Shown here in pieces: positions 1 to 64,000 of a DNA stretch of 64,000 bases; position 1 is the first letter of the stretch, and each line of letters opens with the position of its first letter. The notes under the pieces are model-generated. The model made no database searches. It was given only the letters and a program-made list of their open reading frames with translations, and was not told the DNA's origin. This DNA comes from Vermamoeba vermiformis (taxonomy: Eukaryota): NCBI GenBank assembly GCA_045837725.1, contig JBEWZL010000121.1, positions 62,001 to 126,000 of the forward strand, given 5' to 3'. The position numbers and the translations under genes were made by a program.

Positions 1-2436
1 GAACATTAGTAACGATCTTAGACGTGTCTTATTTTGACAAATTGCATTGGCCGTCAGATTTAAAAGCACGAGGAATGTGACACATTTGACACTTTGACGC
101 TTCCGAAATAATTTGGCTTTTTGACGTGTGCTCAAGCGATCAATTGGCATTTAAACTGACTTTTTTGACACTTTTGACACGTGTTACTTGCCTAACTTGA
201 GTGTGCTTGACAACGAGAATAAATCGCACAACATGAGCACGAAACAGACTGTCTCGATGGATAGATGGTCGCGCAAGTATGACTCGACTACTTGCACTAC
301 TGGCTTCTCGTCGTACATGTGGGCAATCCTAAAGTAAACGACGTTAGTTTTTCACAATTATTATTCGAACTTATAAATATTACCTTAACACGTCGCACAC
401 AATGGACTCGTCGTCGATTTGTCTGGCATTGAGGTAATAGTACTTGATGAGGAAGAACATCGCTGATTAGAACTAAGTCAGTAGGGGCAATTTAACGGCC
501 TTCAATTCGCTTACCGTCATAACTACAATTGTCTACGATGAGCTCTGCTGCATCTGACTCTTTGAATCCTCCCTGCACGACAACTGATTAGTAGCTGCTA
601 TGGTTTTAAAGGTCGGAAATGACACGTGTCAAAGTGTCAAATAGATATCGTGACGCTTGAACCTGGTCTGACGTTGAGTGAACGCGGATAGATATTTTTT
701 AACGTTGAAACTGACACGTGTCATTAAATATTTTTCACTTGTCAAAATGTCGTGCACTTACGTAATACATAGTTCTGAAATAAGCGCTGCGAGCACATAA
801 GATCATCTTGTGACAAAAGATCTCTCGTTCAGTCTTCTTCGACTCTTTGACGACGATCTTCAAGTCGCTCAAAAAGTTCAAGTTGAGAAGTCGTTCGAAC
901 TTTGGGTCAAATCCTTCAATAACGACGTTTTCTTGCTTCAATATCGGCAATAAATTAAATACTTCAAGTTTCATAATCGCTGGTTTGTATAAATCATTGC
1001 TAATGTTTTCGCTGTCCGTACCGCCGATTAGCGACATTTTTCCATATTTGGTAAATAACGTTTTGTCCAAGACGTACCGTTGAAACTTTCCAGTATAAAG
1101 ATATTTCATTATACTCAACACGGCGGGATAATTCAATGCGGATAAATCCATTTCTTTGTCGGTCTGAAAAAGCCGTTAAAAAAACTAATTTTTATTAAAG
1201 AAATTACGTACGGGTTTAATTTTCTCCATAAAACTTGGTAGTCTCGAGAATAGTACGGCCTCTATAATAAAAATATCAGTATTGAATACTCAAATCAAGC
1301 CAGCACTCACTGTGCACATAAATATTTCTATCGCCGGCTACTTTGAGTACCAGGTCCGAGTACTTCTCAACATCTAATAAATATGTTTGAATATCTTCGA
1401 CCTATTATACATATAATTGGTTATAAATATGACCAGGTAAGATACAGAAATTTCGGATTCGAACTTAAGTTTGTAACGTACTATATTTGCGTTAGCCTGC
1501 GGAATAACAATATTGCTGTGCGGAATAACTTTTTTGACCGGTTTGGCGGGCTTATTTTTCTTTTTCTTTTGCGGTTCAGCTTTCTCAGCTCGTCGTTTTC
1601 GAAGCATCCGGATGAGCTCGAATACGGCTTCATCAACGTTAATGCGAACCCTTGCTGATGTTGAAAAGAAAGGCGCTCCATATCTCTTTGCGAGTTGTTG
1701 ACCTTCTTCGAGTGAAACCATGCGATCTGAAGCAAAAATTAAATTTAGATCCTCGGAAAAAAAATTAAAAGTTACTTACCTTGTTGTAGATCGCATTTTG
1801 TTTCAATAATAACGATCGGTATTAATTGTTCGATAGTGTCTACATCTCTGGTGCGCATGACTCGTTCGATGATACGCGGGATCTCCTCAAAAGAGGATCG
1901 ATCTGTATGACTGTACGCAAGCTGCCGAAAATAATTAGTAAATATTTTAATATAATAGTATTTTGTATACAGAAAAATTTTCGATTAGCGAACTGCTTAC
2001 AATTAAACCTTGGTTTCGTAAATTCCATTGATCCGTCCATGCCGGCCGAGCATAAATCTCATCAGGATCAATACCTAACCCACTTAACTCATATATACAT
2101 AAGATACCGTCGATTTCAGATTGTTTTCGGTATGTATCTTAAAAACAAAAAATTAGAATTCAACAATTTTTAAATTGTTTTATTTTTACCTTCACCAATC
2201 GTAGGATCGTAGTACTCTATTGCAAACAAATAATTAAAATTTTTAAAAATTAAAATAAATAAATTTGGAAGCGCTGGATCAACGTTATAATGCTTAATAA
2301 ATTTAATTATTCTTTATGGTCGGCCAACATTAATTAAATTACCTACGAAGTGGTTTTGTACGTGCTGCGTTATAAAAGCCATAACGCCCACACCGCACTT
2401 GCCCTCGACGCCCAATAGCCACTCTTCCCTTTCCAT
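1..2436 (-). CDS. Ras-like (probable pseudo-GTPase) domain fused to BTB/POZ domain(s); multi-exon, 3' end runs off the window start
   Basis: Spliced translation from ATG 2436: [51 protein letters not shown]...IIETKCDLQ-DRMVSLEEGQQLAKRYGAPFFSTSARVRINVDEAVFELIR (Ras-like). BTB hallmarks follow: AVLSIMKYLYTG, FLSDLKIVV...IFCHKMILCARSAYFRTM. GT-AG introns lie between the exons. Confidence 0.82.
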
Positions 2437-2491
2437 TTACTAATTATATATAAATTTATGCCTGTTCGCTACTTCACCAACAGGATTCAAA

Positions 2492-5400
2492 TCAGTAAGC
2501 GGTTTGAACGGAGCTATCAAATATCGCGAAAGTAAATTCTACCTAAAAATAGCCGACCAATCATATTCTTCCATTTTCTAAAAATAAATTGGCTTTCATT
2601 TATAAAAATCGTAAATGACAGCTGAGCCATTTTGGTTGCCAACAAGGTATCGTGTGTTCGCAGCGATGAGTTGCGCTTGTACGTGATAAACTGCCTCCCA
2701 TTGCATTGACGGCACGTGACAAATCGTAACCAATCCCGTTCTGCTGTCTGCGAGTATCGCACGATTCATTGAACAAGACATTATGCATGTTGAGGCCTAA
2801 TATAAACATAATCACTATAGTGGACTATAATATCTTGGTTCAATTAACAAAACTTACCGTGGAATGATCAACGCGAATGAGTTTTTCCACAATTTCTGTT
2901 TCTTTGAAATCTATCAACATGTACGACCTTACATTATCACGCCAAAACAACGTAAACTCGTTAAGAAAGACAAAATGGCCAGTAGTGAAGTCGTTCTTGG
3001 TGTTAAATTGTCTTATCAACTTGCGGTTCATGTCGTAGATTTCAAAGCAGTGCTTGCGAAGGAGAATCATGTAGGTATGGTTAAACGGATTGTACACCAA
3101 GTCCTCGGAGGGAACTATCGTTGGATCGAGAATGCTTTCCGATTGAATGTCGTATATGACGCCATCTGTGGAAGAGAAATTAGCTTTTCCGAGTGTCGGT
3201 TGTGATAGCCTTATCTATGTATCATGAAAACATCGAACATTCCAAATAAAGGAATTAATAGTACTTGAGACCCCAAGGAATATTACTAACTTTCATCAAA
3301 TTTGCAGATTTGGTAACGGTTAGAAAAGTTCGCGGAAAGGTTGGCAAAAAAATTTGCGTTGATGAAAATTCTTCTGAAATTTGACAAGATATAAATTCGA
3401 ATAGTACTTACTTGGTGCTAATATTACGTTTTCATCAATTTGATACGCTTCAGTGCCGTGTTGAGATAGAGCGTCAGCTTCAGGAAAATCAAAATATTCA
3501 TGCAACCGCACCCACTCGCCATTAAAGGCCAGAATATATGTTCTAACGCGATTCTTTTGCTGCATCAATATTGGCGGACAAATCCCGTTGTAAGTTCCTC
3601 CAAGAATTCTGAGAGGGACGAAGTCTCTCAAGGAGTAGGTCTTACAAATCCAATGAATCTTTTGAGTATGACAGTCCCATAAGTACAAATCATGGCCTTT
3701 CATCAGCGCGAGCCAGTTTTCGTCCATTAACGGTGTCGCTGTGTAGCCGTCGAGGCAGATCCGGTTGAAATTTCGCTCGATCCAATTCGTCGAGGCACTG
3801 TGAGATAAAAACTATTAGCATATATTGTTAGTAGTGACTTTAAATGTTAGTATCAATCACATTGTAGGTAATGGTAACTAATGGAAGCGGTTTTTTTTTT
3901 GCGATCTGGCTCCGCATGACTAGACGAGAATTCTGTTGATTGTCTTACATTGCATCTTGTAGTATCATCGCTTTGTAATTATTAATTTTGCTGTTTGGAC
4001 GGACATTTCGTTCGTAGAACTGACGCCAAAACTTGTCGTTCTTTGTAATAATGAAACTTGTCATCGACTTTGTTGCTGTAAATAATCCTACGAGGCCTTT
4101 ACTATCTAAATAGTCTGCTATCATCCACACGATCTCCGGAATCATTTGATCGATCGGAAAATTGTCCGAAGATGGCGCGGAGTTTTGTTCATTTCTGGAT
4201 TTGTCGCTGTCGTCATCTTTCTTTTCGTTTTTATACCGATATTCATTATGTACTATTTCAAAAATATTTTTAGGTTGTTGATAGTAATATCCAGTATGGC
4301 CTTGTTGAATTGGCGGAATTTTGTCGGGCGTCATTCCGTACTTGTACAAAAGAAGAGATACGTTGCTTGATTCGAACATTGGAATTGTTCCAAAATAATT
4401 AAGCGATTGAAAATCACCGGATTTTGCGATACTAATAAAAGCCAACAAAATCTCTAAAGATTCGAACAGTTAGATCGAGTTTTTGGTTCGTTTTTTAAGT
4501 ACCTTTTGGCATTCGGTTACTATGGTTGAAATAATTTGAGACGATCAAAAACAGAGCACTTCTATCCAGCGGGTTCCTATAGGAGGAAAAATGGATTAGA
4601 CGATAGACATTAAAAGACCAGATGCTGATTTAAGACTTACACTTCTAATAACATTTGCACTATCTCCTCTGCTGAATACATCTTCAACAATGATTTCCAC
4701 ATCTTCAATATGCCTCCGTGATAAACGGCTGCATGAAGGATATTATTGCTTTTGTTTTTGCTGTCCGCATCCAGATTCGCAGGAGGAATGTATCCTTCGA
4801 TTTGGGAATCATCGATGCTTGGGAAATGCCTTAAAAAGCATCCAAAGGATAAATCTTTGCCCTCAATAAGGCCGCTGTAAATCGTTTTGAGTGGCAGTGG
4901 ATTCGTCTCATAACAGTTTTGTTGTAGAAGCCATTCAAACAATTGATACTTCTCTGAGGGTATCAAATTTTCATTCTCGTATATTGCTAGTGCAAGATTA
5001 TCATCTATAACGTTATATTAGGAACTAGTTCGAGAATTGACGCGAGATCAAGTTACCTTTAAATCTCGGCTTAAATTTTCTCACACCAAGATGATACGCT
5101 GCTTTAATATACTTCGGATTATCTATAAATAAGTCGAGAGAAATATTTTCGACGTCAACATAGGGCCTCAAAACGGCTGCTAAAGTCTCTGCTGGAACTT
5201 TTCGGAACGAGATCCGCTCTAACTGGTTATCAACCAATTCTAAGTGGCTCAAAAAATCAATAAATATTCATCTATTAATTATGGGATACAGTATTTACCG
5301 AATAGGACGTCTGGACTGATGTCAGGAAAAATAATTGAAAGATGCGAGAGAAATTTGGCAATATTATCGTCCTATAGATCAAATTTCTGTCAGATAATAT

Positions 5401-5509
5401 TACTTATATTTTGCGAGAGATTTCCTGCGTCAAAACAGCATACTTGGGCTCGATCAACTTGCGCATCCGTTACAGTCTTCAACTGCTGAAGGCTTAACGT
5501 ACCGGACAT
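2492..5509 (-). CDS. Multi-exon protein: unknown/ankyrin-like N-terminal half, internal F-box, C-terminal beta-rich (propeller-like) region
   Basis: ATG 5509 (MSGTLSLQQ...), exons matching ORFs 5025-5252, 4637-4966 (NNILHAAVYHG), 3945-4448 (F-box-like IDQMIPEIVWMIADYLDSKGLVGLFTATKSM...FWRQFY), 3320-3727 and 2840-3100; stop TGA at 2492-2494. Confidence 0.6.
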
Positions 5510-5793
5510 TCTATTGCATTACTCGATCGCCTTCTTCAATACAAAAAGCTTGAAAGTTAAAAGATTTGTGGTTATGTCCTTTATGAGCCAAATGAGACCT
5601 GAACGGGACATAACGGCTAAATCAGGAATTGCGGGAATTCTACAACATTGCAAAGAAAGCATGTCATTACGATTGAATTTTGACCGTCAAATTATCCTAC
5701 GAAAATAAACGAGCTGTTCTTATAAGTAGTGTCTTATAAACAAATTTTAATGTCGAGAAGACAAGATCTAGATCCGCTGAGGTTGGATTTCCT

Positions 5794-7937
5794 TTAATGC
5801 TCGAGAAATGCATTGACGTAGTCTTGTACTTCGCTGCACTCTTTCATCGCAGGGCTAAATAAATAATCAGCGTTAGCCACATTTTGAGTTTGTCAAAGTC
5901 TAGACTGACGTACCATTCACTAATAGCCTCTTTGTACTGGTTCAAATCGACAGTGAATTCTTCCACGAAATTTCGTATCATTTGCAGATCACGTGACTCA
6001 ACGACGTAATAAAGCACGTTGCTAAAGTCAAAGTCTTGCAGTAACTTTTTCACCTCTTCTTGCGTCTCTTTTGACGCCTTGTAATATAGATCATGCAAAT
6101 AAGCACGATAATGTTGAGGATTTGCGCGCATTATTTCATAAATTGTTGCTGCTGCTAATTTTGTCGGGCTTCGCAATGTCACGTACGCAACAACTGGATG
6201 TGACACGCCAAAAGCTTCGTGCATGATTTCTCCTTTCTTTCCCTATACAATAATGATGCTATTAGCTTAAGTAGTTTACTGTTACAAGATTAGCTAATTC
6301 AGCGAATGTGGATCTGATCCGTTTTTTGTTTCGGTTTCAAGTACCACAGTTTTTGAAATAACTTTACGAATTTTGAAAATTACGATTATTTTTTGAATGT
6401 TATTGTGTACCTTTGTTGCACAAGTCAATCCCTGGGATATCAAATAGTCCAATATCGCTTTGCGGTTATGTACATCCAGTGCCAGGAAAGTTTCGTTATC
6501 CAAAAAGAACGGGAAATAGTCAGGCAAATAAATAGTCATGTGCATCTTTTTGTGAGTTTCTATCGTTCTTGTATAAAATTGCAATTCTTTTTCGAGGGAA
6601 GTTATTCCGCTGTCAATCAGGAATTTGATAGTGTCAAATGCTTCTCGGTAACAAGCATAGGCGAATGGCGTCTAAATAAATTAAGTAATTATATATATAA
6701 TATAAATTATAACTTTTAAAAAGAATTCGAAATAATTGGACTGAATTACGTAGGAATTGCAAAACTTAAACTTACGTAGTGGAGAGCTCTATAGTATTCA
6801 TAAGGCAATCCATTCTTATAATAAGCTTCTTTAAACAATTCGAGGTGCGGAACTAAAACGAACAGATCTCGCACGACCAATTCAATCCCGAACTTTTTCT
6901 CCATATAAGTTTCTAGAGTGGTGAATGTTTGCATCAATTCTTGAACATCCTTTTGCCCTATATTGTTCGAGAAGCAGAGAATCAGTTTCTAAAAAAGGAA
7001 ATTAGTAAAAACTTGTCAACAGATCCGCGATAGAAATTTGTCGTGCCTTTAGTTTCGGAAGTCCTTTTGGTACGTTATCCAAAAAAGTATATATACTGTC
7101 ACTATTGTATTCGCAAGTAGTACGTAATATCTCTGTATTTTCACGGGCGAATTCGAAGGACCAGTCTGGAGGATAAACCATAACCGGGAACACCAGGGGT
7201 ATGCTGAATATTCTCACTTTTGGAAATTTCTTGCGGAATGTTACAATAGGGAATTGCCACCAATTTAGGTCTATAAAAATGGGTTGGTTTTTTAGATCCG
7301 CATCTAATAAAAAAAATAAAATGAACTTACAAACGATGGAGAGTTGTTCGATATCAAAAGGCTCCGACTCAGTCAAAATCAATTGCTCTACAGCGAGACT
7401 TAATGTAAGCCATTTTAGTTGTTTTGAAGCGGCTATGACAGCCGGCCAAGGTCTGTCAGTGGTGCACGCAGCTTCGAAGCAATATACTTCGAGGCCAGTG
7501 ACTTGATACGTTGAAACTATATTATGGATCATGCTCGTTTTGGTGCGATGTCCGAGTTTGAGCGTAGTATCGTTGATTATAAAACACTTGTTTTGAGATT
7601 GGGACGTTTGACATAAACGTCTAAAAAGTACAATTAAAATCCAAAAAATCGTGAAAATAATCCATTAAATTAACGTAGTATTAAACTGATGAGAGATAGT
7701 TCTTAACAGGATAACATAATTATTGATTTAATTTTAGATCGCAAAATCAGCCTCCTACAGTAGTATGAAGGGCCAACAAAGACGTAAAAAATATTAATAT
7801 ATTTGATACATTTATATAATTGATATAACTTACTTCCATTCCTTGCATACGAGCACTACAGAATTAAGCCAATCCACAAACGGAACTCGATCCAAAATCT
7901 CTTGGATGAGTTCACTTGGTAGGCACTTGAGGTCCAT
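5794..7937 (-). CDS. F-box protein with LRR-like middle and short ankyrin-like C-terminus (paralog of 13282-17801)
   Basis: First exon MDLKCLPSELIQEILDRVPFVDWLNSVVLVCKEWK is a typical F-box. VRDLFVLVPHLELFKEAYYKNGLPYEYY matches CRDLYLLVHNINLFAKSFQLQDLPYSYY in the paralog. Stop TAA at 5794-5796. Confidence 0.75.
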
Positions 7938-8104
7938 GATAATATAATGATGATTTAAATCAAAATAATAAATTCAAAATTTATTTTGTAATTGTGCTAT
8001 TCTACGGGTCCTGTTCTGCCTTTTTTCTGTAGACGTCGTCTGTTTTAGCTAAAACAACATAGGGCCAGAACTGCAGTTATGGACCTATAAAGCATTGTTT
8101 ATTT

Positions 8105-13281: not shown

Positions 13282-16200
13282 ATGGATGATTTGGCTCCAA
13301 AATCTGCGAAAAATCAGAATGATCTTACATCTACGGACCATTTTAGCAAATTACCCTCCGAAATCAAGCTAGCCATATTTCAACAATTTCCTTTCATTGA
13401 ATGGGTTGCTAAGTTATCACCGACATGCTCAGATTGGAGGTAGGATTTTAATCGATATTTAATTCTTCGATCGACAAAATTTTTCGGCTTGTACAGTTCA
13501 TATTGTGTTAATAATGGTCTTAACTAATAATAATATTATTTAAAGGAGAATTTGCACGAGCTCGAGGTTCCCAAAAGAGCTGATCGTCAAACATTTTGTC
13601 GATCGTTTTAGCGGGATTCGATCAAGCACACTTTTTCAAATAGCAAAGAATTTCCACGTAACAGGGATTGATTTAGAAGGCATACCAAAAGAATTATATT
13701 CCTCTAGCGATTGTTCTTGGATTACTATTTTTGCCGCTTCGCCACATCTGACTTGGGTGAACATGAAATCGCTTGACGAAGACATATATAACGAAGATGA
13801 TATACCTCTAGATCCAAACACGGTATCTGAGCTATCTATCGAATGTAAGATCCGAGTATTATTTTTGATCTAGATTCGCATCCCTTATGACGACTCTATT
13901 TTACTTTATTTATAATTCAAATATGTATAATAATTATCTTAATAGTATTTTTAATATTATATTATAGCGTGGGACCTTGTTGAAGAAGTTCAAAACGCCT
14001 TCCCTCAAATAACTACATTAATGGTCCATTCGCCGATCAATTCGAGCGGAATAATTCGCGAAGAAATTAAATTCTTGCAATTAAAGACGCTGCACACCAT
14101 AGGACGACTCATGTCAGTGGAAACAATCAAAACTTTTTTGACCAATCTCAAAGCGTCATTTGCACCAAACTTAGAGGTAATTCTTTGCATTTATTTTTAT
14201 TATGAAATATTACCATATAAAGCAATGGCTCTAAAATATCATTTGCAGACGGTTTACTTGTCGATCCAGAATCGAAAAGACGTGAAAGAATTGATCGCAC
14301 AATATGAAGCCTTAGAAGTATTTGCAAAGGGTCTTAATATCAAACTCTATTGTCGGGATTTATATCTGCTCGTGCATAATATTAATTTATTTGCAAAATC
14401 ATTTCAACTGCAAGATCTGCCCTACAGTTATTACACCTACGAAAATAAGGTACGAAAAAACGCTTATTAGTTAATATAACTAACAAAATAGTATCATAAA
14501 TAATACCTTGTGACGTATTGTTAGTTATTTCATATTATTTTAACCCTTAGCGAAGCGGTTGGTGCTTCTGATCCAAATCCGTTCAAATTTAAAACAGATC
14601 TTTCATGAGTTTAATTTGCTATATTATTCTTTGTTAAATTAGTGATTATATAACATTAATATTAATAATTTTACGATAGACGTTGCTCAGCGAAGCAATT
14701 TTGGCCGGATCTCTTCCAGTCGTCAGATTGCTGCTCGAAACAAAGTTGACCACAATCGAAAAAGAATTGGGTCCTTATCCACTGCCCAATATATTCCATC
14801 GCGCTATTGGTTCAAAACCACCGTCACCACCGTTCTTGCTGCCAAAACATTTGACTTCCAGCGAACGGATCGTTGTGGATTATCTTTTGGATCATGGCTT
14901 AGACGTCAATAGAAAGGTATATATATAAATATCACTATAGACCTTATTAATGTATTAATAGTCTCTAATATCATTTGTAGGTGAACGATAAGCTCTTGTT
15001 CGAAGACATGCAGATCTTGCATTCACCGCTCGCGAGATACTTGGCGAAGAAACGAAAAGTCGATTGGACCACGATGACTTCTGATGGCTATACAGGTATG
15101 TTAATATTAAGACGTCTTTGAATCGGTTCTAAATCAACATGTTTCTGAGATCTGGTTCGAATTTTGTTATGAAATTAATTTCTTTGCTTTAAAAATTACT
15201 TGAATATGAAATTAATATTAAACTTATTATTTAATATTAAAGGGCTTTTATAAATATTATGCTGTTTTAAAGCAATTACTAACATTTATTCCTTTTATAG
15301 TAATGCACATGGTCTTCGAAGACGACGCCTTCGAACTGTTCAAAGAAATTATTCGTCAAACACCTGACGAGACTAGTGTGCGTAATTTATTGCATTTGCG
15401 AGACAAGGACGGCAATACTCCGCTGCATTACCTCGGGCAATGTCGCACGCAATTTATTGACGCGATTGCTGCGTTCAATCCTGATTGGCAGACCAAAAAT
15501 AACTAGTAAGGCCATACATATATAGATATATATATTTATATTTATAATCGTGATATAATAACCTGTTTTTTTACCGAAAATTTTTATGTACAGAAATGTA
15601 CGGGCAATTTTTTAGATTTTATTTGACCCATAACGTTATCACTATAGTTGTAATACTTTTAATGAATTTTATTACAAATATTGTTTTTTTAATCGATTTT
15701 TGCAGTGGTGATACGCCGTTGCTGCATTGGGTCAAGATGAGCAGCGCTGACTTTTTGAGCGAAAAGTTCGAACGTAAGAGTTACTTTTCATCGTTTGAAA
15801 TTTCCGAGAATTAATTGAATTTGCCACAATAGGAATCGTATCATTGGTCACTCATGTCCAAGAAGGTGTTTTGACCGCAATTTTCAGAACTCAAAAAGAT
15901 CCGGAAGCTCTCGAGAAGAATATTACTATCTTGGCGTCTAAAGGCATTAATTTCAATGAAAATATTCGCGGGGAGCCTGCTGTTACGCATTTACGCTGTT
16001 TTTCCGCGCCTTTATTGAAAGTAAGCGAATTTTCGAGATCTTGAAAAATTCAAATTTAACCTATAGAAGTCTAACGTATAATGTAGGCATTAACGAGCTA
16101 TAATATCGATATTAAAGCTGTTAATGGAATGAAGAGGTCGTTATTGTATAATGTTATTGAGAGCTCGGACGAAGCAGATCTGTTTGAACTTCTCGTCAAG

Positions 16201-17801
16201 GACTACAAACTGAATATCAATCATATTGATAGCAATGGCATGACACCACTTATATTTGCAATTAGAATGCAAAAAGATGAGGTCATAATTAGAAAGTTAC
16301 TCGAGCTTGGAGCGGATGTAGGTCGAAAATCAATCTTTGCAGGAATTTTTTTCTAACATTCCTTCTTTAGCCTAATTTAGCAGGACCTAATGCACCACCA
16401 GCTCTATATTACATGAGATTTCATTTGGACGAAATAGAGGAAATATGCGAGCTGTTATTGAAAGCTGGAGCAGATCCGAATCTGCGGTTCATGAACGAAG
16501 ATAAACTAACTACGTCATTTATGGCGTTAGTGACGTCTAATCCTAGCGAAGAATTACTACAGCTCCTAATTAAATATGGTAAGCTTATTCGTCTTGCAGA
16601 GTTTAGGATCTGATCCAAATCCGCAGGTGGCAATGAAAATGAACGAGATGAAGTTGGCAATACGCTGCTGCATATTATCGACAGCAAAGATCAAATCAAA
16701 GCCTTATTGCACTATATAGATGTTAATATGACGAATAATTATGGCGAAACACCTCTTTGGGGTAAGATCCAAAATTCCAAATTGAAAAAAACCCAGTTTT
16801 TATTGACCTATTTCCTTTTTAGGCAAAGTCTCGGACATATCTCCGTTCATTAATAAGAAAGCTAATGTCAATCACGTTTCACTGAACGGGTCTACAGCAC
16901 TTCATACAGCAATGCAAAACAAAGACGAAGAAAAAGCACACGCGCTCTTAGCCGTCCAAAATATAGGTTCGCAAATTTATTTCCTTATTTGGAAAGTCAC
17001 GTGCTAACATAATTTCCATTTGCAGATCTATCTCTGCTTGATAACTGCGGTCGGTCATTTTTGCATTTTATTCATCGCTGTCCGATCGTGTTCGAAGATA
17101 TTTTGAATGCCTATAATAGGCAATCGGAAGAAAACAAACGCAAAGTTAAGCAAGCAGTGAACAACATTGACTTTTTTGGCAAAACAGCGGTGCATTATGT
17201 CGTCAAGACGGCGAGCGAAACATTGGTCAGATCTCTCGTTCAAACTTTCGAACTGAATGTGGCGCCATTAACTGATTATACACCACTACATCAATGGTAC
17301 GTACTGCTATATAATATGATTACAGAATATTCTTTCGTCACATTTCAGTCTTAACATCTGTGCCGGATCAGATCCGACCGAGTTCAGTTTTCTTAGTAAT
17401 TATTGGATACTGCGTTTTAATTGTTATTATTATCGGTTTAAATGATAATAATTTACTAATTGCTATGGCGTAGTATATCGTCATTAGACAACAACTACCA
17501 AGCCTCACTGCGGATCGCAAAGTACCTCTGTGAACTGGGCGTGGACATCAACGCAGCAATTAAATCGAGTAATAATACTGCGCTATTATTATTGTGTGCG
17601 AAACACCCGCACGCAACTGAAATGAAACGGATCTTGTTGAAAGTAAGTTCAAAATATTTAGCAATGCAATGCGTTATTAATTAATAATTTTTGCAGTACG
17701 GTGCTTCTATAACATGGAAAAACAACAAGGGAATAGCTCCCGTGGACATCGATCCTGAAATTCGAAAATTAATAGTGGTAGATCCAAGTAAAACGCCTTA
17801 G
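13282..17801 (+). CDS. F-box, LRR-like and multiple ankyrin-repeat protein
   Basis: Exon 1 HFSKLPSEIKLAIFQQFPFIEWVAKLSPTCSDWR (F-box). Many ankyrin motifs follow (DKDGNTPLHYL, DSNGMTPLIFAI...LLELGAD, DFFGKTAVHY, YLCELGVDINA). Stop TAG at 17799-17801. Confidence 0.85.
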
Positions 17802-21614: not shown

Positions 21615-24600
21615 ATGGGCCAGGTTAATCAACGGATCGACGCTTGGTTGAATCCAAATGACGCGGACAACGACAAAAATAAAGCGGTACATAGGAACCC
21701 GTATTAGATATTATAATACAATAAATTATATAGATAGATTTAATAGTACAATAGCTTAGGCAGTCTTAGACTGATTGAAAATGATTTTTATTTGAAAATT
21801 AATACAAATTGATCACTTTAGGACCCCTTCGACGTTATAAATCCACTGACACCTAATGGAATATTCCCGCCAGAAGTAGTAGAGCTAATTTTGAAATATT
21901 TGGGCGTCGATCCAAAATCTTTATTTTCCACGGCAATATCCTGCAAACTATGGCTTCAAACTGGCGGCTTATTCGTAAAAGTAAGATGAATTACTTATTA
22001 TAGGCTTTTTCTTACCATTACTGCAGGGTTTTCGTCGTTATAAACTCGATCCAAACACAGCGAATTTAAGAAACGAAGTTTTTCGACAACAAACCATAGA
22101 AAATAATATTAAAAATGGAATGTATGTATAATATGTATAGTATTAGCTATTATTAACACAATTTCAGATATTGGGCGAATGTGCTGGCTAAACCTTACTG
22201 GGTTCATAGAAGCACTACAATGTTCAATTTCGATTGGTCAATTTGGAAGAATTTAATCGCTATTAATGAAGAAAAGTCTATAAGAATGTACGTAAAGTTA
22301 ATATTGTTAACCGGATTAACAGAATATTGTCGCGCAACAAGATTTTTGTTGGCGAATTTTTCATTCCAACAACGAACATCGCAAATGCGAACGGGGACCA
22401 ACGGCGCCGCTGTGGGTTTTCAGGAGATTTATCTGCCGCGCCCCGTCCGCAGAGCAGATAAGGAGATAAATTATTTACATATATAAATATATCTACAGAA
22501 AAATCTACAAAGAGCAAGGAAACCCAAATAGGCGACCGCGTCACCTCCACGCTGGCGTGAATATACCAAGCCAAGATATGAGGACGATGGGGGGGGAACC
22601 GAACCCCCCAGGAACCACACGCACCCACGATAACAGCAGCAGTGCTAGTGTAAGATAAGCGATATATATGAATAGCAATATAAGAAAATAATTAAGATTG
22701 AATTAGTGAAGTCAGTCGGGCATCCGGGACCGCACTAGCGGCCGAGATACGACAGAATCTCCGTGAGATCTATACCGCGGTGCAGTCGGTGCCGCATCAA
22801 CGATGCTAAGAAGTTCGCAACTACAAAATTTTCGCACAAACAAAAAATCTTGTTGCGATTCGCAACAATAATTTCGTGGGAATTTGAATCCGGTTAACAA
22901 TATCGCACGTTTTGAGACACTTTTGTGAAAAAGTTCTGATCTGGATCGCGTACTTTGAACAGGTCTATGGGTCCAGAATATCTTTTCACGCGCGGAAAAA
23001 TTATCGATCTTGGCAGTGGCCGGCAAGAAGACGATGCGGATTGGGGAGTGCACGTAGTTGGTGGCGTACAAGTCGTGCTTAACAGGTCGAATTGGGGCTT
23101 TGACTGGTCCCGCTTCACGTGTTACATCGACAGAAAACGATCTGCAAATATCGGTACGACATTATTTTATATATTTTATTAATAAGCAAGACATTAGAAC
23201 CTGTTTTCTCTTCCCAGTCGGATCAGATCCAAGATAATTCGCTAATTTTTTCTGTACCATTTTTACGAAAATAATATTAACTCTAATGTATACCCAGTTA
23301 ACATTAATGCAGTGAGCAACATAAATATTCCGCGGGATATGAATGACAGCTACCACGCCTTACGAGTGCCCAGTCGCATCATCGCAGGACTGCACAATCT
23401 CGATGAATCTCCCACAGTGCTCCTCTACGATCGAGTTTACGCTCAAGTTGTTTCATTTGCGTAAGACTTCAGTTTATCAAATTTATTCGTTCTTCGCTAA
23501 TTTTCATGGCAGTATAATATCGTCATTTGACAAGAAAATTAATGCAATTTAATTTTTTATTAGGGGAAGCAAAGAAAATGACACGGCAAATAGTTTTTCA
23601 GTGGAATGTTATGACCTACTGACTGGCCAGATGCTTCATGAAATGAAAATCAATCAACTTGGCTCTGTTATCGGATACTTTGTACGCGATATGACTACGT
23701 TGTTTGGCAATATAACTAATGACGAATGTCCACAGAAACACTATGTGATTTGTTCTTCACCAACAGAAACAGTGTTCGTCGATTTGCGGAGCAAAAATAT
23801 TTCAACGAAATTTCCCGTTGGATCCGTCACCGAAGACACGTTTTGTATATGCGATCGGAAGGTACGCTTATACTATTATATTATATTAAATATTAATACT
23901 AATGGTTAATTACTCGATAGATCGCTTTTGCAAATGGTACTTTAGTGCTATTTTATGATTGGTCAACTGGTCGCCAAATTAGGAAATTAAATGTTGGTGG
24001 CCTGTTCGACGAATCAAAGTACAAAGAACAAAAGCGACCAATGAAGGTCGGTAGTTTAATCTTTGCGAAAATTTTTTAGTCGACCGTTCATGAACGCTAA
24101 TAATCAATTTTCTATTTTTAGATTCAAGGAATTGCATTCGATCGGTGGAAATTAGTTCTTGGAATTGGAGCGGATTTATCTGCGACGCGTGAAGATTATT
24201 TTTTACGGTTCCGTGAAGGCGACTCCGTGCCGACTTTTCTGGCCATATTTGACATGCACGATGACTTTAAATTGTTGCAAAGTATCCACGTGCCGAGTAC
24301 TTTTCGGGGCAATTGTCCGTTCAAAATTGCGTTGCCACCAAAAGGCTCCATAGTCGTTGAAAACAAGTAGGTCAACACTCTTTTATAAAAATATTCCGTT
24401 CTTAAGAATTAAAATTAATTTTTCACGCAGGGCACTAATCGAGTTTGATTTCAATCATCCATATTTGGCAAAACAAATTCCCGTTGCATTTTTCAACGCC
24501 GTAAGTAACTTACCATAAAATTTTCCATAATTATTTTTATGGTACCTTATAATCTAATCTCTTGTATTATAGAAAGATCTAGCGTTACAAGTCCACAAAG

Positions 24601-25327
24601 TTGATCCGAAGCAGCTGAGCGAATTCGTGCAAAAGAAACTTGGCTGTGACTTACCGATGGTTCAAAACGTTACGTATTTTGAACGAGATCCGCACATTGA
24701 ACACAAGTACGTATTACAGTACATCTTAAATACATATGTATCATAAATGTGTCGATCTTTTATTAGTATTATTTCGCGAACAGACACTGTGAAAAATATC
24801 AAAATATCCGTGAAAAAATTAGATCCGACAGGTCACGTTCATTTTTTAATTTTTCTTTAAGTTTAATCATCTAAACCATAATGAAATTTAATTGTTATTA
24901 TTTTATAGGAGTAGACAACGGAGCAAAATGTTACTTGAACACAGCAAAAACCCTTCGAACTGGAAATCAGTACGCATTACGTTTCTTTCCTCGAACAAAT
25001 CAAATCCAGACAGCGTTGCGTTCACTGAACTCGGAGAATTCAAGAAATATTACGAAAAATTGCCCGATGTCGTTTCGGTATTTGCGATAACTTCAAAAAT
25101 TCCTGGAACAACTGCCGACCCGCAAGTACGCCCTACATACAATACAATAATTATAATAATACTAATGATATTTTATGCAGGTTTGTAACCGACCAAAGTC
25201 TGTCCAGGGAAAATGCGTGCTGATCTTCGAACGGTTCAATGACGAGACTGGCCAATGGGATATTATCGAGCCGTTTGCACCGAAAGGCATTAATTTCAGC
25301 ACGCATGATGCGGAGGCAGGTATTTAA
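21615..25327 (+). CDS. F-box protein with beta-propeller-like middle and lineage-specific C-terminal domain (paralog of 39250-41807)
   Basis: MGQVNQRIDAW...PNGIFPPEVVELILKYLGVDPKSLFSTAISCKLWLQ (F-box). Later exons include FDRWKLVL...IFDMHDDFKLLQSIH and a last exon VCNRPKSVQGKCVLIFERFNDETGQW. Many GT-AG introns. Confidence 0.75.
22305..22899. mobile_element. 595-bp non-coding insertion with TGT...ACA inverted termini and ATAT target-site duplication (non-autonomous Ginger/TDD-like DNA transposon or solo LTR), inside an intron
   Basis: TGTTAACCGGATT (22305-22317) and AATCCGGTTAACA (22887-22899) are a perfect inverted repeat. An imperfect inner IR (CGCAACAAGATTTTT / AAAAATCTTGTTGCG) follows. 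ATAT flanks both sides (22301-22304, 22900-22903). Removing the element leaves a 76-nt intron of normal size. Confidence 0.78.
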
Positions 25328-25551: not shown

Positions 25552-26757
25552 TTATAATACAATATTCGCTGCCTCACGAAGCTGATCCATGACAGTGAGC
25601 GCTCTCAGATACGATTCTTTGTACTGTTCACGGCCTATCACGAGTTCAAGCACGGAGTGAAAATCACCGTAGTGCAATCGCTCTTCTTCTTCTAGACTAA
25701 AGTTGTTATAATTCACTGCAATTATCTGTCAATATAATAATTAAGATCAGATTGGAGATTACTGGAGATTCTACGTCAATTTTCCGTAATTTCCAAATTA
25801 GGAAATTTAAATAAAAGTTCGGTTTAGGACTTACGTGCCAGTTCTTAGTCTCGCTATTGTACACCATAAATCTCTCACTAAAATATCTCATTTTTGCAGG
25901 TCTATATTCATTTTCAATAGGAGCTCTTCGAACGGCAAGTCCTCGTCTTGTTTGTGTTCGTGGATGCGGCACCGGTGGCTTTGGTGCCCGAACGACTTTT
26001 GATATTCTGATTGGTGGCTGCATCTCCACGCGAAATTTCACCGGAATTGTGGACTGACCAATCGCAATGAACTCTACGGCCACATGTTTCGTGTCAAAAT
26101 CGTCTTCTTGTCGTGGATCGGTAACTGCATCCGGATACATTTCTCTATTTTCCTCCTTGATAGTATCTAAATTATCATATTTAACTTCTTGACCGTCGTT
26201 ATCAATTTTGTAGAACGAGATCCGTGCCGGATTCAGATTTGGAAAGAGTAAAGGCTTAATTGGGGATACATGCACTTCATCGCCTAATTGTGATCGTAAT
26301 TTGTATCTAATTTTCCAAGAATATTCGTGCCAATAGTTAAACAGGACGAATCTTCTTGCACTTATGGGGATCGAGTCTGGGGTAAGACACATTAGATTTA
26401 AATTAGCCAAAATTAACTATAATACCTTCTAAAATCGCCAAAGTATTTTTCGGAGGGCTTTTGACTTGATCAATTTTCCACCGCTGAACGTAGAGACGCA
26501 TCCACTCAGAATCTGAAAAAAGATCTTGCACCGGCGTCGCAGAAATTATAAATAAAGCTAATTCTTTCGCTTCCGAATATCCAATAATTATTTTCAAAAT
26601 ATCTGTCGGCAATTCTACTATTTTTTGTTCCAGATCAAGTTGATCATCTGCCTTAAATCGTTTTAAATTGATTCTATCCTCATCCTGCTGTATACAAATT
26701 AATACGACGCTACAATTAGATTGAAAATCTTACTTGGTCTTCAAATCTTCTCTTCAT
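25552..26757 (-). CDS. F-box protein sharing the C-terminal domain of the 21615 and 39250 genes but lacking the propeller region
   Basis: MKRRFEDQ-...IVELPTDILKIIIGYSEAKELALFIISATPVQDLFSDSEWMRLY (F-box-like), then EYRPAKMRYFSERFMVYNSETKNW; stop TAA at 25552-25554. Confidence 0.65.
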
Positions 26758-30068: not shown

Positions 30069-30491
30069 TCATTCGTCTTCGTCATCGGAAAAATCGTCAA
30101 ACTTGGCTGCGAGGTTAAAATAAGCAGTTCGAAGTGGCGTAGTTCCCGGATGTGGATTCGTCAGCCACGGATGATTCGATGCCTCTTCTAATGTCATTCT
30201 ATCTTCTGGTTTACGCTGAAGTAAGCGCTGAACAAAATCTTTGGCCAGATCTGAAACTTCATTTTCGGCGGCTTTAAAGTCGTAACCTTTAAATAGCCAC
30301 ATATAGCCCAAAAACCTTCTTAGATTTTCTTCCTGACACAAAGTGTGACCCTGAGAGCAGATAAAATGTCAAAGAACCTAAATAACAACTCGGTTAACAA
30401 GCAAGTTATAATAGCGGAATTTTCCTTTTATGGCAATTTCACAGCAAAAAATAAATCCCATCTTTTCCAAATTTTTATTTGGAAAATTTTA

Positions 30492-30522
<31 letters not shown>

Positions 30523-39241: not shown

Positions 39242-39249
39242 AGTTAGAT

Positions 39250-41807
39250 CTATTTTTGGCAATAATAATCAATCTCTTCGTAATCAACGCTAATTTTCTT
39301 CACCGCGGGTCTGATTATTTCCAAATTTTCCTCGAATTGAGGCTTGCAGAATTTCCATTTGCCCATCTTAGCATCAAACTCTTCGAACACTATCAAACAA
39401 CTACCATTGAACCCTGGCGGACGATATCTACTCATTCATATTAATATAATATTCTATAATCAAGTTCGATCATTACGGTTGGAAGTGGGTTCTTTGCAAC
39501 GTTTTCAGCTCGTTGTTCGTGATCGCGAATGGTACCCAAAGTGCAGGACTTTTAGGCCACCCCTCAACGGCACTCAAAAATCCAACTCTTCTATACTCCA
39601 GTTGCGCTTTGAATATGCATGTCATACGCATAACAAACCTAATATTGAATTCAAAGTCAGATCCGCATCCAATCTAAAAAATTGTACTTTGGAACTACTT
39701 CTTCAGTCTGTATAGTCCATAGAGATAATGTATGTTCTATTCGCAGTAAAAAAAATTCTTCTAGGCACTTACGGAGTATCAGGGTTAAGGCGCTTGTTGA
39801 CCGTTACAGCGTTAATATCATCCAGCTCACGCTTTAGAGTTTCTAAAGCTACTTTCGTAATATCGACGGCATTAATATTGTACATTGAGATGTGTGCCTT
39901 GTCCTAAAACCGAAGCGTTATAACGACCATAGATTAAATTATAATTTATATTATTATAATATTTTCGGGACTTACATCGTCGTAGAAACCAACCGTTATC
40001 TTCTCGTGGAGTGCAGGATGGTCGAAATGATAGACCGTTAAGTTTCTATTTAGAAAAAATATGTTAGTAATTGTTAGGTATTTAAGGCAAGATCCGGATC
40101 CGACTTACGTGTCACCCACAACGATAGACCCGTTAGGCAATAATTCTATCTTCGTCTCTCGTGATATGTTCATGACATCGTGGATGGTTTGCAATAACTC
40201 AAAGTTGTTGTTAATGTCGTAGACTTGCAACACGTGATAGTCGTTCACGAGCAAGAGAGCCACGACAAGCCGCCACTTATCAAATGTTATGGCTAGCATC
40301 CCTTTAATATCCTCTTTTCCATTCGCCAATTCCGATGTATCAATAACAATACGTCGGATCTCTTTTCCCTTTTCGAGATCGATGAGCACGATAGTGTCTT
40401 GAAATCCGTATGCAAACTAACATTCTTATTAGTAATTTGATAGAACACTATTATGCCGTTCTACCTTGCCGTCGAAAAAATAAGTTGCAACCCGCTTGGT
40501 ACTCGTAACAAAAGAAAACTTTTTCTCTCCTGTTGTCAGATCTAGTATACCGAGACGGTCAGGCTCCGCAGTATCAGTAGAAGCGATATAATTTTTCTGA
40601 GAAAACTAATTAGGAATTGTTTTAAGTTTTGTAGTGGAGCTTACGTAAAAACATTGTGCATCCAGAACAGAAGGCTTTGGAAGCTGTTGCCTTAGAATAA
40701 CCTTGCTTGACATAGTATCGAATACTTCCACTGAATTGTCGAAATACTGAATCAGGATTTGGTTGCTGCCGTCAAGGTTTTTGCGATGGTGCATCATGTT
40801 TTTGGCGGGCGGTGACGCAATTTCTGTTGAAGTAAATGTTAAATCGAACGTTACGCACTATAAGTAACAATATATTCTTGCCTATTTTGGTCTTCTTTTT
40901 AGGCTGGCCAATAGGATGACTCTCGACCACTGTAGCGCTAGGTTCTTCATTGACGGGAAAGTACATTTCTGTCTGGCCCACGTAAAGACAGTTGAACTCG
41001 TGAGGAGTTTTCTCGGACGTAAGAGCGTTGTACTTGTAGGCCTCTTTGGCATACACGGCACTTAGGTATGAACTGCAGCAAAGCTAAGTTACAAATTTCT
41101 TGGAAAGTGAGGTACTTACTCGTAAACAACTTTGAATGTACTATACGCAATATCATTGTTATGCGTCGTGAGCGTGTAACTGACGTCACCACCATGTCTA
41201 GTTTTATATTGGCTGCACAGGATCTCTGGCCAGTACCTTTCGAGATAAAATTAAAACCTACATCTAGGATCCCGAAAACTTACACTCCTTTCCTTAGGTT
41301 ATCCTTAGCTTTACGAAGCTTTATATACATCTCCCTATAGTCAATATGTTGACTTTCGTCGATACTTGGGTCAAATTCTTGGCGGTAAAGGTGCTGTAAC
41401 AAAGTTAGAAAACCACGAAGGCAAATCCGCAGATAAATTACCTTTAATGCTTGATACGAGGTCTCCAGCCATAATTTACACGACAAGCTCGAGCTTATCA
41501 TTGCTTCAAGGTCCAAATAAACCATAATCAGTTCCAAAATTTCTGGCGGATACATTCCATTTGGTCTGACAATGTTCTGGAATATGAATTCCTATGAATT
41601 AAATTAAATTAATTAATAAGAATACGATAAATAATATTAAATAATTAAACTGCACCTTCCTAGGGGAGATCCGATTCCAAAGTCCTCTCTAACGAAGCTG
41701 TTAATTGAAAATATTCGTATATATATAATACATATCGTGGTAAGCATATGTTAACTAGTTACCCTTTGATTATGGCTGAACCTGGTTGTGACTGACCCAT
41801 TTCCCAT
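39250..41807 (-). CDS. F-box protein with beta-propeller-like middle and lineage-specific C-terminal domain (paralog of 21615-25327)
   Basis: MGNGSV...PNGMYPPEILELIMVYLDLEAMISSSLSCKLWLE (F-box); TFDKWRLVVAL...VYDINNNFELLQTIH...LLPNGSIVV; YRPPGFNGSCLIVFEEFDAKMGKW. Confidence 0.75.
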
Positions 41808-54600: not shown

Positions 54601-54699
54601 AACTTGCCTATTATGGCCGTCATGGACGTTGAAGTCATGCTTCGTCAAAAGATGAACGAGGCTTGGAGAAGAAAATCGCAACCTGATCAAGAGCGGTGA
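51620..54699 (+). CDS. CPA2-family cation/H+ antiporter (KHA1/CHX-like) with C-terminal USP-like cytosolic tail
   Basis: LLLVQIIII...EPMVVAEMLAGIILGPTVLGRIPGF...GLILFMFVVGLEID...ISALPVLARILSE...ATAFDDLLAWPLLALA...FMPLYFTLSGLKT...GVLMNTKGLVALI; stop TGA at 54697-54699. Confidence 0.93.
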
Positions 54700-54830
54700 C
54701 GGATCTCGAAGCACTGAAGAAGTCAGCATTAATATTTCGAATAGCATTCGCGAGCGATTTGAATAACACTTTTATTTATAAATAAACTAATGTACTACTT
54801 TTAAATAAGTTGTAACAATTCGTTGGTGCC

Positions 54831-61796: not shown

Positions 61797-62251
61797 TTAA
61801 TTAAATAATATATATTTTACGCTTTCTTACGTTCGTTGTCGAACGTTTGTGCAATCAACGTGAAACAATGCCGAGCAAAGGAAAACGGAGGGAGAGGAAA
61901 TCACAATAAAATAATTGGTTTTCGTTTAAAATTCATTATCGACGAATCTTCAAGCGACGCGTACTAAAATGAAATTGTTTAGTAATTTGATTTGCGAATC
62001 TGCCACGAGAACTTACATTTTAAATCTGCATGCGTTTTTTGTAACGGCTATATTCCTTGCAAACGACCAGGTCTTGCCTCGAACTGCTCGTGAACTGAGT
62101 ATATATTATGCTTCTATCCTCCTTTTCCGCTAAGGGACTAACTCAGTGTCTCCTTTTTCGAGTCTTTAAAAAAAAAAAAACCGTTTCTCGATTTAATTTT
62201 AAACCTGCTGCGCTACACATCACCTAATCCAATCGTATTATAGCAGCAACA

Positions 62252-64000
62252 ATGGAGAAGAATGGGCTTGAAGTAGACCACAACGTGCCGCACTCCATCT
62301 GGCTTTACCTTCCAACAGAACTGTGGTTTCAAATATTTCAATGGTTAAGAGCTACTCGATATATAGCATTAATAGGCGCATTATCGAAAGGCTTCAGAGA
62401 GTTCATGATAGAGTATTTTAAATCCGTTGGTCCGTGGATGAACAAAAATATGAACGTTGCGATTGTTGGTGCTCCTGCAGTTGGTAAGTTGATTAAACAT
62501 TAATAATATAATAATATCTTTAGTATTATTTGAGTTAAAATTTATTTTTGCGAGCAATTTTAGATCAGCTGATATTTTGCGAATTTTCAAAGAATGCCAA
62601 TTGTACCTTCTAACGCTTATTATAGGAAAAACCACTATGCTTGCTCACCTTTTTCTTCAATCACGCCTAAATAACATCGAGCATCGATTCGCCAATTTCA
62701 TGGCAAAAAACAATAAGCTGCCCGTAACATCGCATTATAATTCGTTCCTTAATGCTCGCAATGCTAAACATCCTATAACATATACGCAACATATTCGACC
62801 TTTTTACTTCGACACTAGTCTGCACCACTTTACCTTTTTTGATAGTCCCGGATGTGCACGACGATTAATCACTGCGTATCGTATTTGCTCTCAAGTAAGC
62901 AATATATTACCACATTATATGATTTAAATGCTTATTTGTACGCAATTATAGGTTAATACCGCTATTTTGGTGCTTCAACGCAAACAAGAGCTCGATCTGG
63001 ACTGGTTAATCAGTGGTGTAACTGCAGTATGGACGTCATTAACGCACTCGCACTTTATTATTGCCGTCAATTATAGCCACGGTATTTTTACTCAACCTAG
63101 TAAGTACTCGCACGAAAAAAAGGATCGTACTAGTACCTTAAAAATTCATAATTTATTTTTCTTTGCTTTGAGCTTAAAAATAGTGTCATTAATATAAGGA
63201 GCGCTAATACGGCCTATATTTAATATTGGAAGGATTATTAATGATAATTTGCTTTAGATTGGGAAGCAGATCAAAAACTACTTTACGAGAAATTGGTTAA
63301 GGCAGTGCCTGCAAAGTTGCTTTCTAATATTAAACTGATTCCGATCAACGCACTTGAAGGGTTTAATGTTTACTCGCCTCATGCCGGCATCGATGACTCG
63401 AACATCTGGTAAGTCGGTTAATCAGCTTCAAAATTCAATTTTATACAGAAATTATTATTTAAGTCCTATACGTCTTAATTTGTGATATATAAATATAGGT
63501 ATAACGGCCCTACATTATATCGAGCATTACATGCTATATGGGAGAAGTTGGAATATCCTGCCGAACGGATCGAGAAGCCGTTTTCGATGACAGTCCTTCG
63601 CCCTATGAAAGTTGGTGGAGTAGGACCCATTATTGCCGGAGCAGTTAATAGTAAGGAGATTAGAATCATATTTGACGTTTAAGCCAAATCTAAAAAATAT
63701 TTCCTTTTTAGGCGGATGTCTCAAACCCGGAATGAAACTTCGCGTTTGCTGCTCTGGTTTCCCAGCGACTCCATTAGTAGTTCATTCTATCCAGCATAAT
63801 GGCAGAAATATGGACGAAGCTAAACCCTCCGATTATATTGGAATTTCATTCACATCCGCTTCAAGAACTCAAATAACCGGCTGGAACATACTCGAAAAAG
63901 TCAAATATGGCATGATAGTGGCCGATAATAATAATCCTCCGAAGAGAGTCAAGTCGTTTACGGCGGCTATTGCTATCGTAAGTAGTCACAAGAATTTCGT
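62252..64000 (+). CDS. F-box fused to a divergent EF-1alpha-like (translational GTPase) protein; runs off the window end
   Basis: WLYLPTELWFQIFQWL (F-box), then NVAIVGAPAVGKTT, FDTSLHHFTFFDSPG, LIPINALEGFNV, WYNGPTL, EKPFSMTV...VGGVGPIIAGAVNSGCLKPGM, VHSIQHN...EAKPSDYIG, KYGMIV...PPKRVKSFTAAI. These are colinear with EF-1alpha domains I-III. Confidence 0.82.

Follow-up and report, generated by a model that had tools for sequence, protein, structure and literature searches.

Canonical F-box receptors of the FBXW, FBXL and FBXO types begin with an F-box of approx. 40 residues at the N-terminus, behind which lies a domain that binds proteins. F-box and BTB adaptors decide what a cell destroys, and the origin of new target-binding ends is an open evolutionary question. 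In a stretch of 64,000 nucleotides assigned to Vermamoeba vermiformis (contig JBEWZL010000121.1, positions 62,001 to 126,000 of the forward strand; the window in the following), a sequence-only reading had listed eleven F-box genes and one BTB gene, six of them fused to degenerate copies of conserved enzymes, and had proposed that the fusions could act as integrated decoys against effectors of the Legionella type. Our analysis points, with moderate probability, to a lineage-restricted birth-and-death cluster of cullin-RING substrate receptors in which pseudoenzyme folds serve for binding or regulation. Kinase, translation-factor and Ras folds stripped of catalysis are joined to cullin adaptors within one small region, and one of these combinations was amplified in tandem. 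Two genes of the window (genes A and B) carry ankyrin repeats, probable ones in gene A, behind the F-box as in the canonical build, whereas other C-terminal modules are a CaMK-type pseudokinase and an EF-1alpha-type pseudoGTPase.

RhoBTB proteins, in which an atypical small GTPase domain precedes two BTB domains, are the described system with the build of the single BTB gene in the window. They assemble cullin 3 ligases; according to an excerpt of PMC4931677, the first BTB domain is bound by the GTPase domain, which keeps cullin 3 from binding until partners lift the block. The window gene differs in that its GTPase domain is devoid of the P-loop Lys/Ser and of DxxG altogether and in that its homologue P0017 is shorter (519 residues versus 591–875 for the related clusters in the Atlas). 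The expanded F-box and MATH-BTB families of nematodes and plants share other traits with the window, namely clustered and tandemly duplicated cullin adaptors accompanied by pseudogenes. Thomas reportedly proposed in 2006 an immune or conflict role for expanded F-box and MATH-BTB families. Such a role is also put forward for nematode and plant adaptor families in excerpts of PMC8120010 and PMC3030570. However, these families vary a dedicated substrate-binding domain (FTH/FBA or MATH), while the variable end in the window is a dead enzyme and positive selection was not seen in pairwise comparisons of non-synonymous and synonymous substitution rates (dN/dS).

Two further systems resemble parts of the locus. 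The plant pseudokinases ZED1/RKS1 and the integrated decoys of receptors of the nucleotide-binding leucine-rich-repeat type (NLR-ID) also combine a catalytically dead copy of a host enzyme with a surveillance protein to which it is attached or with which it works. In contrast, the fusions of the window contain no NLR or other signalling domain, their output would be ubiquitination, and they resemble host proteins at the level of the fold only. Ski7 is a degenerate translational GTPase of the eEF1A/HBS1/eRF3 group in which the catalytic His is replaced and which works as an adaptor and not as an enzyme. The F-box/EF-1alpha-like gene of the window likewise combines an EF-1alpha-type G domain and domain II with a replaced catalytic His. 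It differs by its fusion to an F-box and by the loss of NKxD; its top matches in the PDB are EF-1alpha with E-values of 0.08–0.44.

The combination that was amplified is an F-box with a kinase-like domain. Four tandem copies (c1 to c4) with 66–93% DNA identity lie on the minus strand between 26.99 and 33.36 kb. Intact models with six exons each were obtained for c1 (26993..28443; 376 residues, GT..AG introns, open frame) and c2 (28564..29966; 372 residues). The frame is disrupted in exons 1, 3 and 4 of c3 (30069..31669), with an in-frame stop ahead of the main kinase-like exon, and in exons 1 and 4 of c4 (31939..33358); relative to c1, both contain several indels that are not multiples of three. 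An additional base at 31274 in c3 is missing from a contig of X1, a sequencing run of another label from a relative of approx. 96% identity, whose spliced contigs were compared with window positions 21700–41699. Thus, c3 and c4 are either broken or mis-assembled in this assembly. Intron 5 of c3 (30478–30569) contains a long poly-A followed by a poly-G/C run, which may be a weak point of the assembly near the frameshifted copy.

Single stop-free open reading frames (ORFs) or exons of the window were sent to Pfam and the PDB one at a time. Pkinase (PF00069) was matched by all five kinase-like exons sent, with E-values from 1.9e-8 to 1.8e-3 (3.8e-4 and 3.7e-7 for c1, 2.1e-4 for c2); one of them, the C-lobe exon of c4, exceeded the cut-off with 34.4 bits. 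A PDB search with the C-lobe exon gave 285 sequences at E≤1e-3, headed by CaMK1 and DAPK1 with a best E-value of 6.7e-12, measured for c4 against CaMK1. In an alignment with four active CAMK/CDPK-type kinases, the copies have a gap of eight residues at the HRDxKxxN catalytic loop, N-Y-M or N-Y-T in place of DFG, and V or T in place of the beta3 Lys. The pattern of the Gly-rich loop is lost too, while S-P-E/D and the C-lobe are retained. On the basis of this loss of the catalytic loop, DFG and beta3 Lys, and of the same loop in the two related proteins P0002 and P0003, the domains are read from their sequences as pseudokinases. The claim of four kinases without HRD and DFG was therefore borne out.

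The F-box of the kinase copies is split by an intron. In c2, one exon (29508–29638) within the ORF 29490–29807 holds the second half of the F-box together with the beginning of the kinase-like N-lobe, and the spliced joint 29508/29450 was found in X1 at a depth of 6.3. The fusion in c2 is thus real, since the two parts occupy one ORF and the joint is present in a spliced contig. No further domain able to bind substrates was recognised in the model proteins of c1 and c2.

The distribution of the family was studied with a profile of the main kinase-like exon against 1.84 billion protein representatives. Thirteen proteins were found at E≤1e-3, of which only P0002 (144 residues) and P0003 (117 residues) reached E≤1e-10. 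Both have the size of an exon, share 46–69% identity with the copies in the window and agree with them in the degenerate loop and in the exon ends. Pfam was run on ten of the thirteen proteins, and the eight besides P0002 and P0003 are ordinary active kinases; the nearest active kinases score approx. 35–40 bits against the profile. Among 91 candidates from the protein collections, no longer protein matched the kinase-like exon, and scans of metagenome contigs with P0002 and with the c2 exon gave no relatives. Judged from these searches, the family branched off from the CAMK kinases and is restricted to a narrow lineage that has been poorly sampled and is barely covered by public protein collections.

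Selection on the kinase copies was estimated by the Nei-Gojobori method on the codon columns of c1 for all six pairs of c1 to c4. The dN/dS was 0.13–0.42 in the F-box region and 0.23–0.34 over the whole kinase-like domain. It was higher only in the activation-segment exon (0.53–0.73), which is poorly aligned and rich in indels. Both halves of the proteins are constrained with net purifying selection and without an excess of replacement changes, as far as these rough values allow. The sequence-only reading had named purifying instead of diversifying selection on the bait surfaces as an outcome that would speak against it, and these values go part of the way towards that outcome.

Transcripts of the relative cover several genes in this part of the window. 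Contigs of X1 were found over all four kinase copies at depths of 0.3–2.5, including one over c1 at 27010–27292, and a contig of 1912 nt spans gene C with twelve GT..AG joints. Gene C and the kinase copies are thus transcribed in the relative of approx. 96% identity, and at least some of the fusions are spliced there. Among the codon rows listed for gene C against X1, 19 changes were synonymous and 16 non-synonymous. The depth was zero over 25702–26368, and there was likewise no cover over 40376–41699. Three further RNA-seq runs with the same species label (X5 to X7, approx. 1.85 billion letters each) gave only 109–188 reads on 20 kb with more than eight genes; nearly all were partial and located at A/T runs, so that they are uninformative on expression. 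The window may not come from the organism sampled in these runs.

The second type of fusion was found at the right end of the window (62252..64000, plus strand). The gene was modelled with six exons bounded by GTAAG donors and AG acceptors; its frame is open over 406 residues and continues past the window end. The F-box and the P-loop lie within one first exon (62252–62483; F-box-like E 0.0082). Sent singly, the EF-like exons gave GTP_EFTU (PF00009) with E 0.089–0.19 and 11.8–12.8 bits (cut-off 26.5), GTP_EFTU_D2 (PF03144) with E 0.23 and 12.3 bits (cut-off 30.3), and GTP_EFTU_D4 with E 0.017 and 15.4 bits (cut-off 23.8); none reached the curated Pfam threshold of these EF-Tu/EF-1alpha families and each score is non-significant. 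The G-domain exon had no match in the PDB at E≤10. The next exon had eight matches, the top five of which were EF-1alpha at chain positions 210–254, and the top three matches of the exon after it were EF-1alpha as well, at chain positions 259–345 and collinear with the preceding exon. All of these top matches are weak (E 0.08–0.44 across both exons), and the domain II exon is approx. 25% identical to yeast eEF1A in the PDB alignment. As a lead only, the top three Atlas entries for the G-domain exon were EF-1alpha/GTP_EFTU fragments (0.86–0.87).

Reading the model, G1 (G-x4-G-K-T) is intact and the G2 Thr is kept, while G3 reads D-S-P-G-C with His changed to Cys and NKxD is replaced by N-Y-S-H. 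The product is accepted as EF-1alpha-like with altered G motifs, as had been claimed, from the collinear PDB ranks, the Atlas and the motifs, each score being weak and below the Pfam thresholds. None of seven candidates from the protein collections was a longer protein matching exon 2, and structure prediction without alignments for the first exon gave a mean predicted local distance difference test (pLDDT) of 60.9, which is too poor for a fold search.

The third type is the Ras-like/BTB/BTB gene at the left end (187..2436, minus strand), which starts with an ATG at 2436 and probably continues to or past the window end at its 3' side. Separate exons matched Ras (E 4.3e-7 and 2.3e-4) and BTB (E 3.3e-10, 40.5 bits), and a second BTB domain was recognised by reading the exons, which also showed the missing P-loop Lys/Ser and the absence of DxxG. 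The GTPase domain is presumably closer to Ras than to Rho, judged by eye from its motifs. A search of the protein collections with the BTB exon gave one match (P0001), the homologue with the dead P-loop being 68% identical. P0017, a homologue of 519 residues in a homologue cluster with the source name 'GTPase KRas protein', contains Ras (E 9.3e-31, residues 10–174) and BTB (E 6e-30, in two stretches) in a single protein, and the P-loop Lys and DxxG are absent there as well. With P0017 as query, tblastn covered 2436..190 in eight collinear pieces of 35–79% identity. The lowest value belongs to the switch-region exon (2138–1959 versus residues 41–100; 35%), as opposed to 63–79% in the BTB exons; either constraint has perhaps been relaxed in a GTPase free of nucleotide, or the surface facing its partners has diversified.

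The nearest Atlas clusters to P0017 were RhoBTB1, RhoBTB3 and RacA-like (0.91–0.94). Its structure prediction without alignments had a mean pLDDT of 37.5, again too poor for a fold search. By its domain order the gene appears to belong to the already known RhoBTB kind, and the counts of one BTB gene and of one Ras domain without P-loop Lys and DxxG hold, with the addition that the gene has two BTB domains. A regulatory role of a dead GTPase has a precedent, because RhoBTB proteins are autoinhibited.

All six fusions to degenerate enzymes proved to be real single genes. Joins of neighbouring genes were considered as their origin and ruled out: in c2 as well as in the EF-like gene, a single exon holds both F-box and enzyme-like sequence, the c2 joint is spliced in X1, and P0017 spans Ras and both BTB domains.

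The F-boxes themselves required several profiles. Eleven candidates had been picked by reading ORFs, and the exons of ten of them (all except c4) were scored against Pfam (PF00646/PF12937). The gathering threshold was passed by gene A alone (7833–7973, 30.2 bits, cut-off 20.5). Five exons stayed below it with E-values from 1.5e-4 to 0.018, namely those of gene B (13282–13440), gene C (21822–21986), gene D (41283–41591), the EF-like gene (62228–62500) and c2 (first half); an intron interrupts the F-box domain in most of the five. No Pfam match at E≤1 was obtained for the remaining four (3948–4469, 26406–26729 and the first halves of c1 and c3). A local hidden Markov model (HMM) was then seeded with five Pfam-supported F-boxes and run over 2,040 ORFs of at least 20 residues plus spliced N-termini. 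Its top non-seed match was c2 (E 0.014), and it found no further F-boxes among the 2,040 window ORFs. When a profile of the four spliced N-termini of the kinase copies was aligned with the five-seed profile in hhalign, the probability was 87% (E 4e-6, 33 columns). The same comparison with the window F-boxes gave 4.7% for 3948–4469 and 1.2% for 26406–26729. Nine of the eleven predicted F-boxes are thus supported by profiles, and the two at approx. 4.1 and 26.6 kb show a resemblance at the level of the motif only, which reduces the original count by two.

From these results the following mode of action is proposed. The N-terminal F-box of nine genes would dock on Skp1/Cul1 and the BTB pair of one gene on Cul3, while the C-terminal end would serve as protein-binding module, a pseudoenzyme in six of the genes. 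Three such modules are envisaged: a CaMK-derived kinase fold without catalytic loop, DFG and beta3 Lys in the four tandem copies; a translational GTPase fold of the EF-1alpha/HBS1 type with intact P-loop, from which the catalytic His and NKxD are gone; and a Ras fold without P-loop Lys or DxxG. The dead folds are most likely scaffolds for endogenous partners of the parent enzymes, which would then be ubiquitinated. This agrees with an option of the sequence-only reading, the capture of partners of the mimicked proteins for ubiquitination, which is compatible with everything seen. In the Ras-like/BTB/BTB gene the fold would more likely lock the BTB domain from within the molecule, in the way of RhoBTB.

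The cluster would grow and decay through local duplication. Birth and death are indicated by the tandem array of four copies (66–93% identity), two of them frameshifted, and by the inverted paralogue pairs A/B and C/D; constraint is indicated by dN/dS well below 1, by the 19 synonymous versus 16 non-synonymous changes listed for gene C and by the dead P-loop common to the window gene and P0017; and restriction to one lineage is indicated by the finding of only two proteins at E≤1e-10 among 1.84 billion.

Several points weigh against this account. Only one of ten F-box candidates lies above Pfam's own threshold and two fail every profile test, and endogenous partners as well as the binding of Skp1, Cul1 and Cul3 are predictions. 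Two of the four kinase fusions are broken here, and part of the array may be dead. Synonymous change (dS) among the copies is close to saturation or past it, which makes the values rough and weakens the estimate of selection, and pairwise averages are compatible with positive selection at a few sites. Finally, change is fastest on surfaces by which partners are normally contacted, as a race between host and pathogen would predict too.

Broken copies and unsupported F-boxes also suit the idea that the cluster arose mostly neutrally, as local duplication and shuffling of domains went on in a large F-box superfamily with fast turnover, with many members functionless and heading for loss. Such genomic drift is proposed for plant F-box families in an excerpt of PMC3030570, and it would explain the two disrupted frames among the four kinase copies, the two candidates without profile signal and the stretches at 25702–26368 and 40376–41699 that have no X1 cover. 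We consider it unlikely as an explanation of the whole cluster. The dN/dS is well under 1 in the F-box and in the pseudoenzyme domains, frames of 376, 372 and 406 residues with six exons each are intact, P0002 and P0003 keep the same features at 46–69% identity, and X1 contigs lie over all four kinase copies.

Alternatively, the pseudoenzyme might not hold the substrate at all but act as a switch which folds back on the F-box or BTB domain and gates cullin binding, with substrates bound elsewhere. The Ras-like/BTB/BTB gene has exactly the build for which an excerpt of PMC4931677 gives the autoinhibition model of RhoBTB, and the EF-like domain, which retains G1, the Thr of G2 and D..G in G3, may still bind nucleotides. 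However, a switch driven by a ligand is unlikely for the kinase-like domains, from which the pattern of the Gly-rich loop, beta3 Lys, catalytic loop and DFG are gone, and the F-box/pseudokinase proteins have no other domain for substrates. For the cluster as a whole, regulated adaptors are distinctly improbable.

The proposal of effector traps holds that host proteins attacked by intracellular pathogens are mimicked by the dead domains of the kinase, EF-1alpha-like and Ras types, and that a bound effector is ubiquitinated via Skp1/Cul1/F-box (SCF) or cullin-3 RING (CRL3) ligases or that the state of the adaptor reports the attack. Tandem duplication with loss of copies and the restriction to a narrow lineage would be in line with it, and the fastest change was indeed measured in the activation-segment exon (dN/dS 0.53–0.73) and in the Ras switch region (35% versus 63–79% in the BTB exons). 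Faster change in partner-facing segments would be equally well explained by the loss of nucleotide binding. In Caenorhabditis elegans, expanded F-box families are under strong positive selection according to an excerpt of PMC8120010. Among the kinase copies of the window, selection is purifying on average, and a great distance separates the domains from their supposed models: the EF-like G-domain exon has no PDB match at E≤10, domain II is approx. 25% identical to yeast eEF1A, and active kinases reach 35–40 bits. Legionella glucosyltransferases modify a loop of eEF1A; this loop is not recognisable in the EF-like model. The dead Ras P-loop is common to the 68% identical homologue, as would suit a state that is settled and not embattled, signalling domains of the NLR type are absent from the fusion genes, and full-text searches found no paper with this architecture.

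The RhoBTB build and the interspersion of the adaptors with ordinary genes weigh against it as well. The integrated-decoy immunity of the sequence-only reading has no positive support here, and we regard effector traps as highly unlikely. Slighter still is the chance that an adaptor nest of a unicellular or little-known eukaryote, with dead CaMK-type kinase, eEF1A-type GTPase and Ras domains as effector traps, arose outside plants and animals as an analogue of plant integrated decoys that works through ubiquitin.

Full-text literature searches turned up no protein that joins an F-box to a pseudokinase or to a pseudoGTPase, which does not prove that none has been described. Should the pseudoenzyme ends bind partners of the parent enzymes, the genes would amount to natural "degrader" designs and would supply new modules for substrate receptors. 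If pathogen proteins were trapped instead, decoy-based immunity would be extended to a new lineage and to a new output.

The remaining F-box genes form two pairs. Gene A (4600..7973, minus strand) has its F-box (PF00646) at 7833–7973; behind it lie a region without assignment and repeats that are probably of the ankyrin type. Gene B (13282..17681, plus strand) starts with an F-box at 13282–13440 (F-box 20.1 bits, F-box-like 21.9 bits) and has ankyrin repeats, of which Ank_2 at 16087–16353 lies above the cut-off with 30.4 bits. Segments 7005–7664 and 6749–6988 of gene A are 26–39% identical to gene B, and the two are an old inverted paralogue pair. The same holds for genes C and D (40108–40416 versus 24122–24367, 32% identity). 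No fusion gene contained a Pfam domain of the NB-ARC/NACHT type; the only such match in the window was a weak NNH2 in gene A (E 0.0034, below cut-off).

Gene C (21821..25311, plus strand) carries an F-box at 21864–21980 (F-box-like E 0.0011) and approx. 580 residues without a Pfam match. Its structure was taken from the spliced X1 contig and comprises 13 exons, with one open frame through all of them, and twelve introns of 46–675 nt, all GT..AG. Intron 3 (22288–22962) is with 675 nt much longer than the other eleven (46–202 nt) and overlaps antisense ORFs of 137 residues (22281–22691) and 149 residues (22715–23161); it may be an inserted element. Gene D (40108..41591, minus strand) has an F-box within 41283–41591 (F-box-like 21.0 bits, E 2.8e-4) and a region paralogous to gene C.

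The two candidates without profile support are an exon at 3948..4469 (minus strand) with a motif resembling an F-box at approx. 4050–4150, and a gene at 25709..26729 (minus strand) with such a motif in 26406–26729 and an exon of 236 residues of no known family. The exons downstream of the former (2843–3811) match no family, and Pfam gave nothing significant on 3323–3811 and 2843–3214.

The window has a G+C content of 34–41%. It contains only nine ATG-started ORFs of at least 150 residues, and its 305 stop-to-stop ORFs of at least 60 residues are arranged in strand-consistent runs. It is intron-dense eukaryotic DNA, as is evident from the spliced contig of gene C with its twelve GT..AG introns and the frame open over 13 exons. 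Among the ten largest ORFs, Dynamin_N alone exceeded its Pfam cut-off, and neither an Rfam scan nor a tRNA scan of the window gave a match. The lineage of the window is nearly absent from protein collections. By a rough count for this window only, cullin adaptors make up approx. 10–12 of some 26 genes, a striking share, and come from four to six independent lineages. The ordinary genes between them code for a metallophosphatase, a WD40 protein, a short-chain dehydrogenase, an E2, a Na/H exchanger, a CLU protein and an active kinase.

The E2 exon, a ubiquitin-conjugating enzyme among the adaptor genes, was found at 49249–49754 (plus strand; UQ_con E 8.8e-6). The kinase at 44335–46872 (plus strand) is apparently active by reading, with an HRD split by an intron and DFG present; it is not CaMK-like and no obvious parent of the window pseudokinases. 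A run of exons at 54358–61796 (minus strand) combines a Cys-rich N-terminal exon (no Pfam match), a 'clustered mitochondria' (CLU) domain (E 2.3e-14) and an exon for a GTPase of the dynamin type (Dynamin_N E 2.5e-11) and is either one unusual gene or two neighbours. The gene at 33491–35052 (minus strand) holds the largest ORF of the window (281 residues, no Pfam match), and with the signal-like start of its upstream exon its product looks secreted or surface-located. Tandem paralogues with 51–54% identity and without an assigned family lie at 36445–37157 and 37909–38548 (minus strand); their small products contain Cys, have Pro/Ala/Val repeats and are hydrophobic at the C-terminus.

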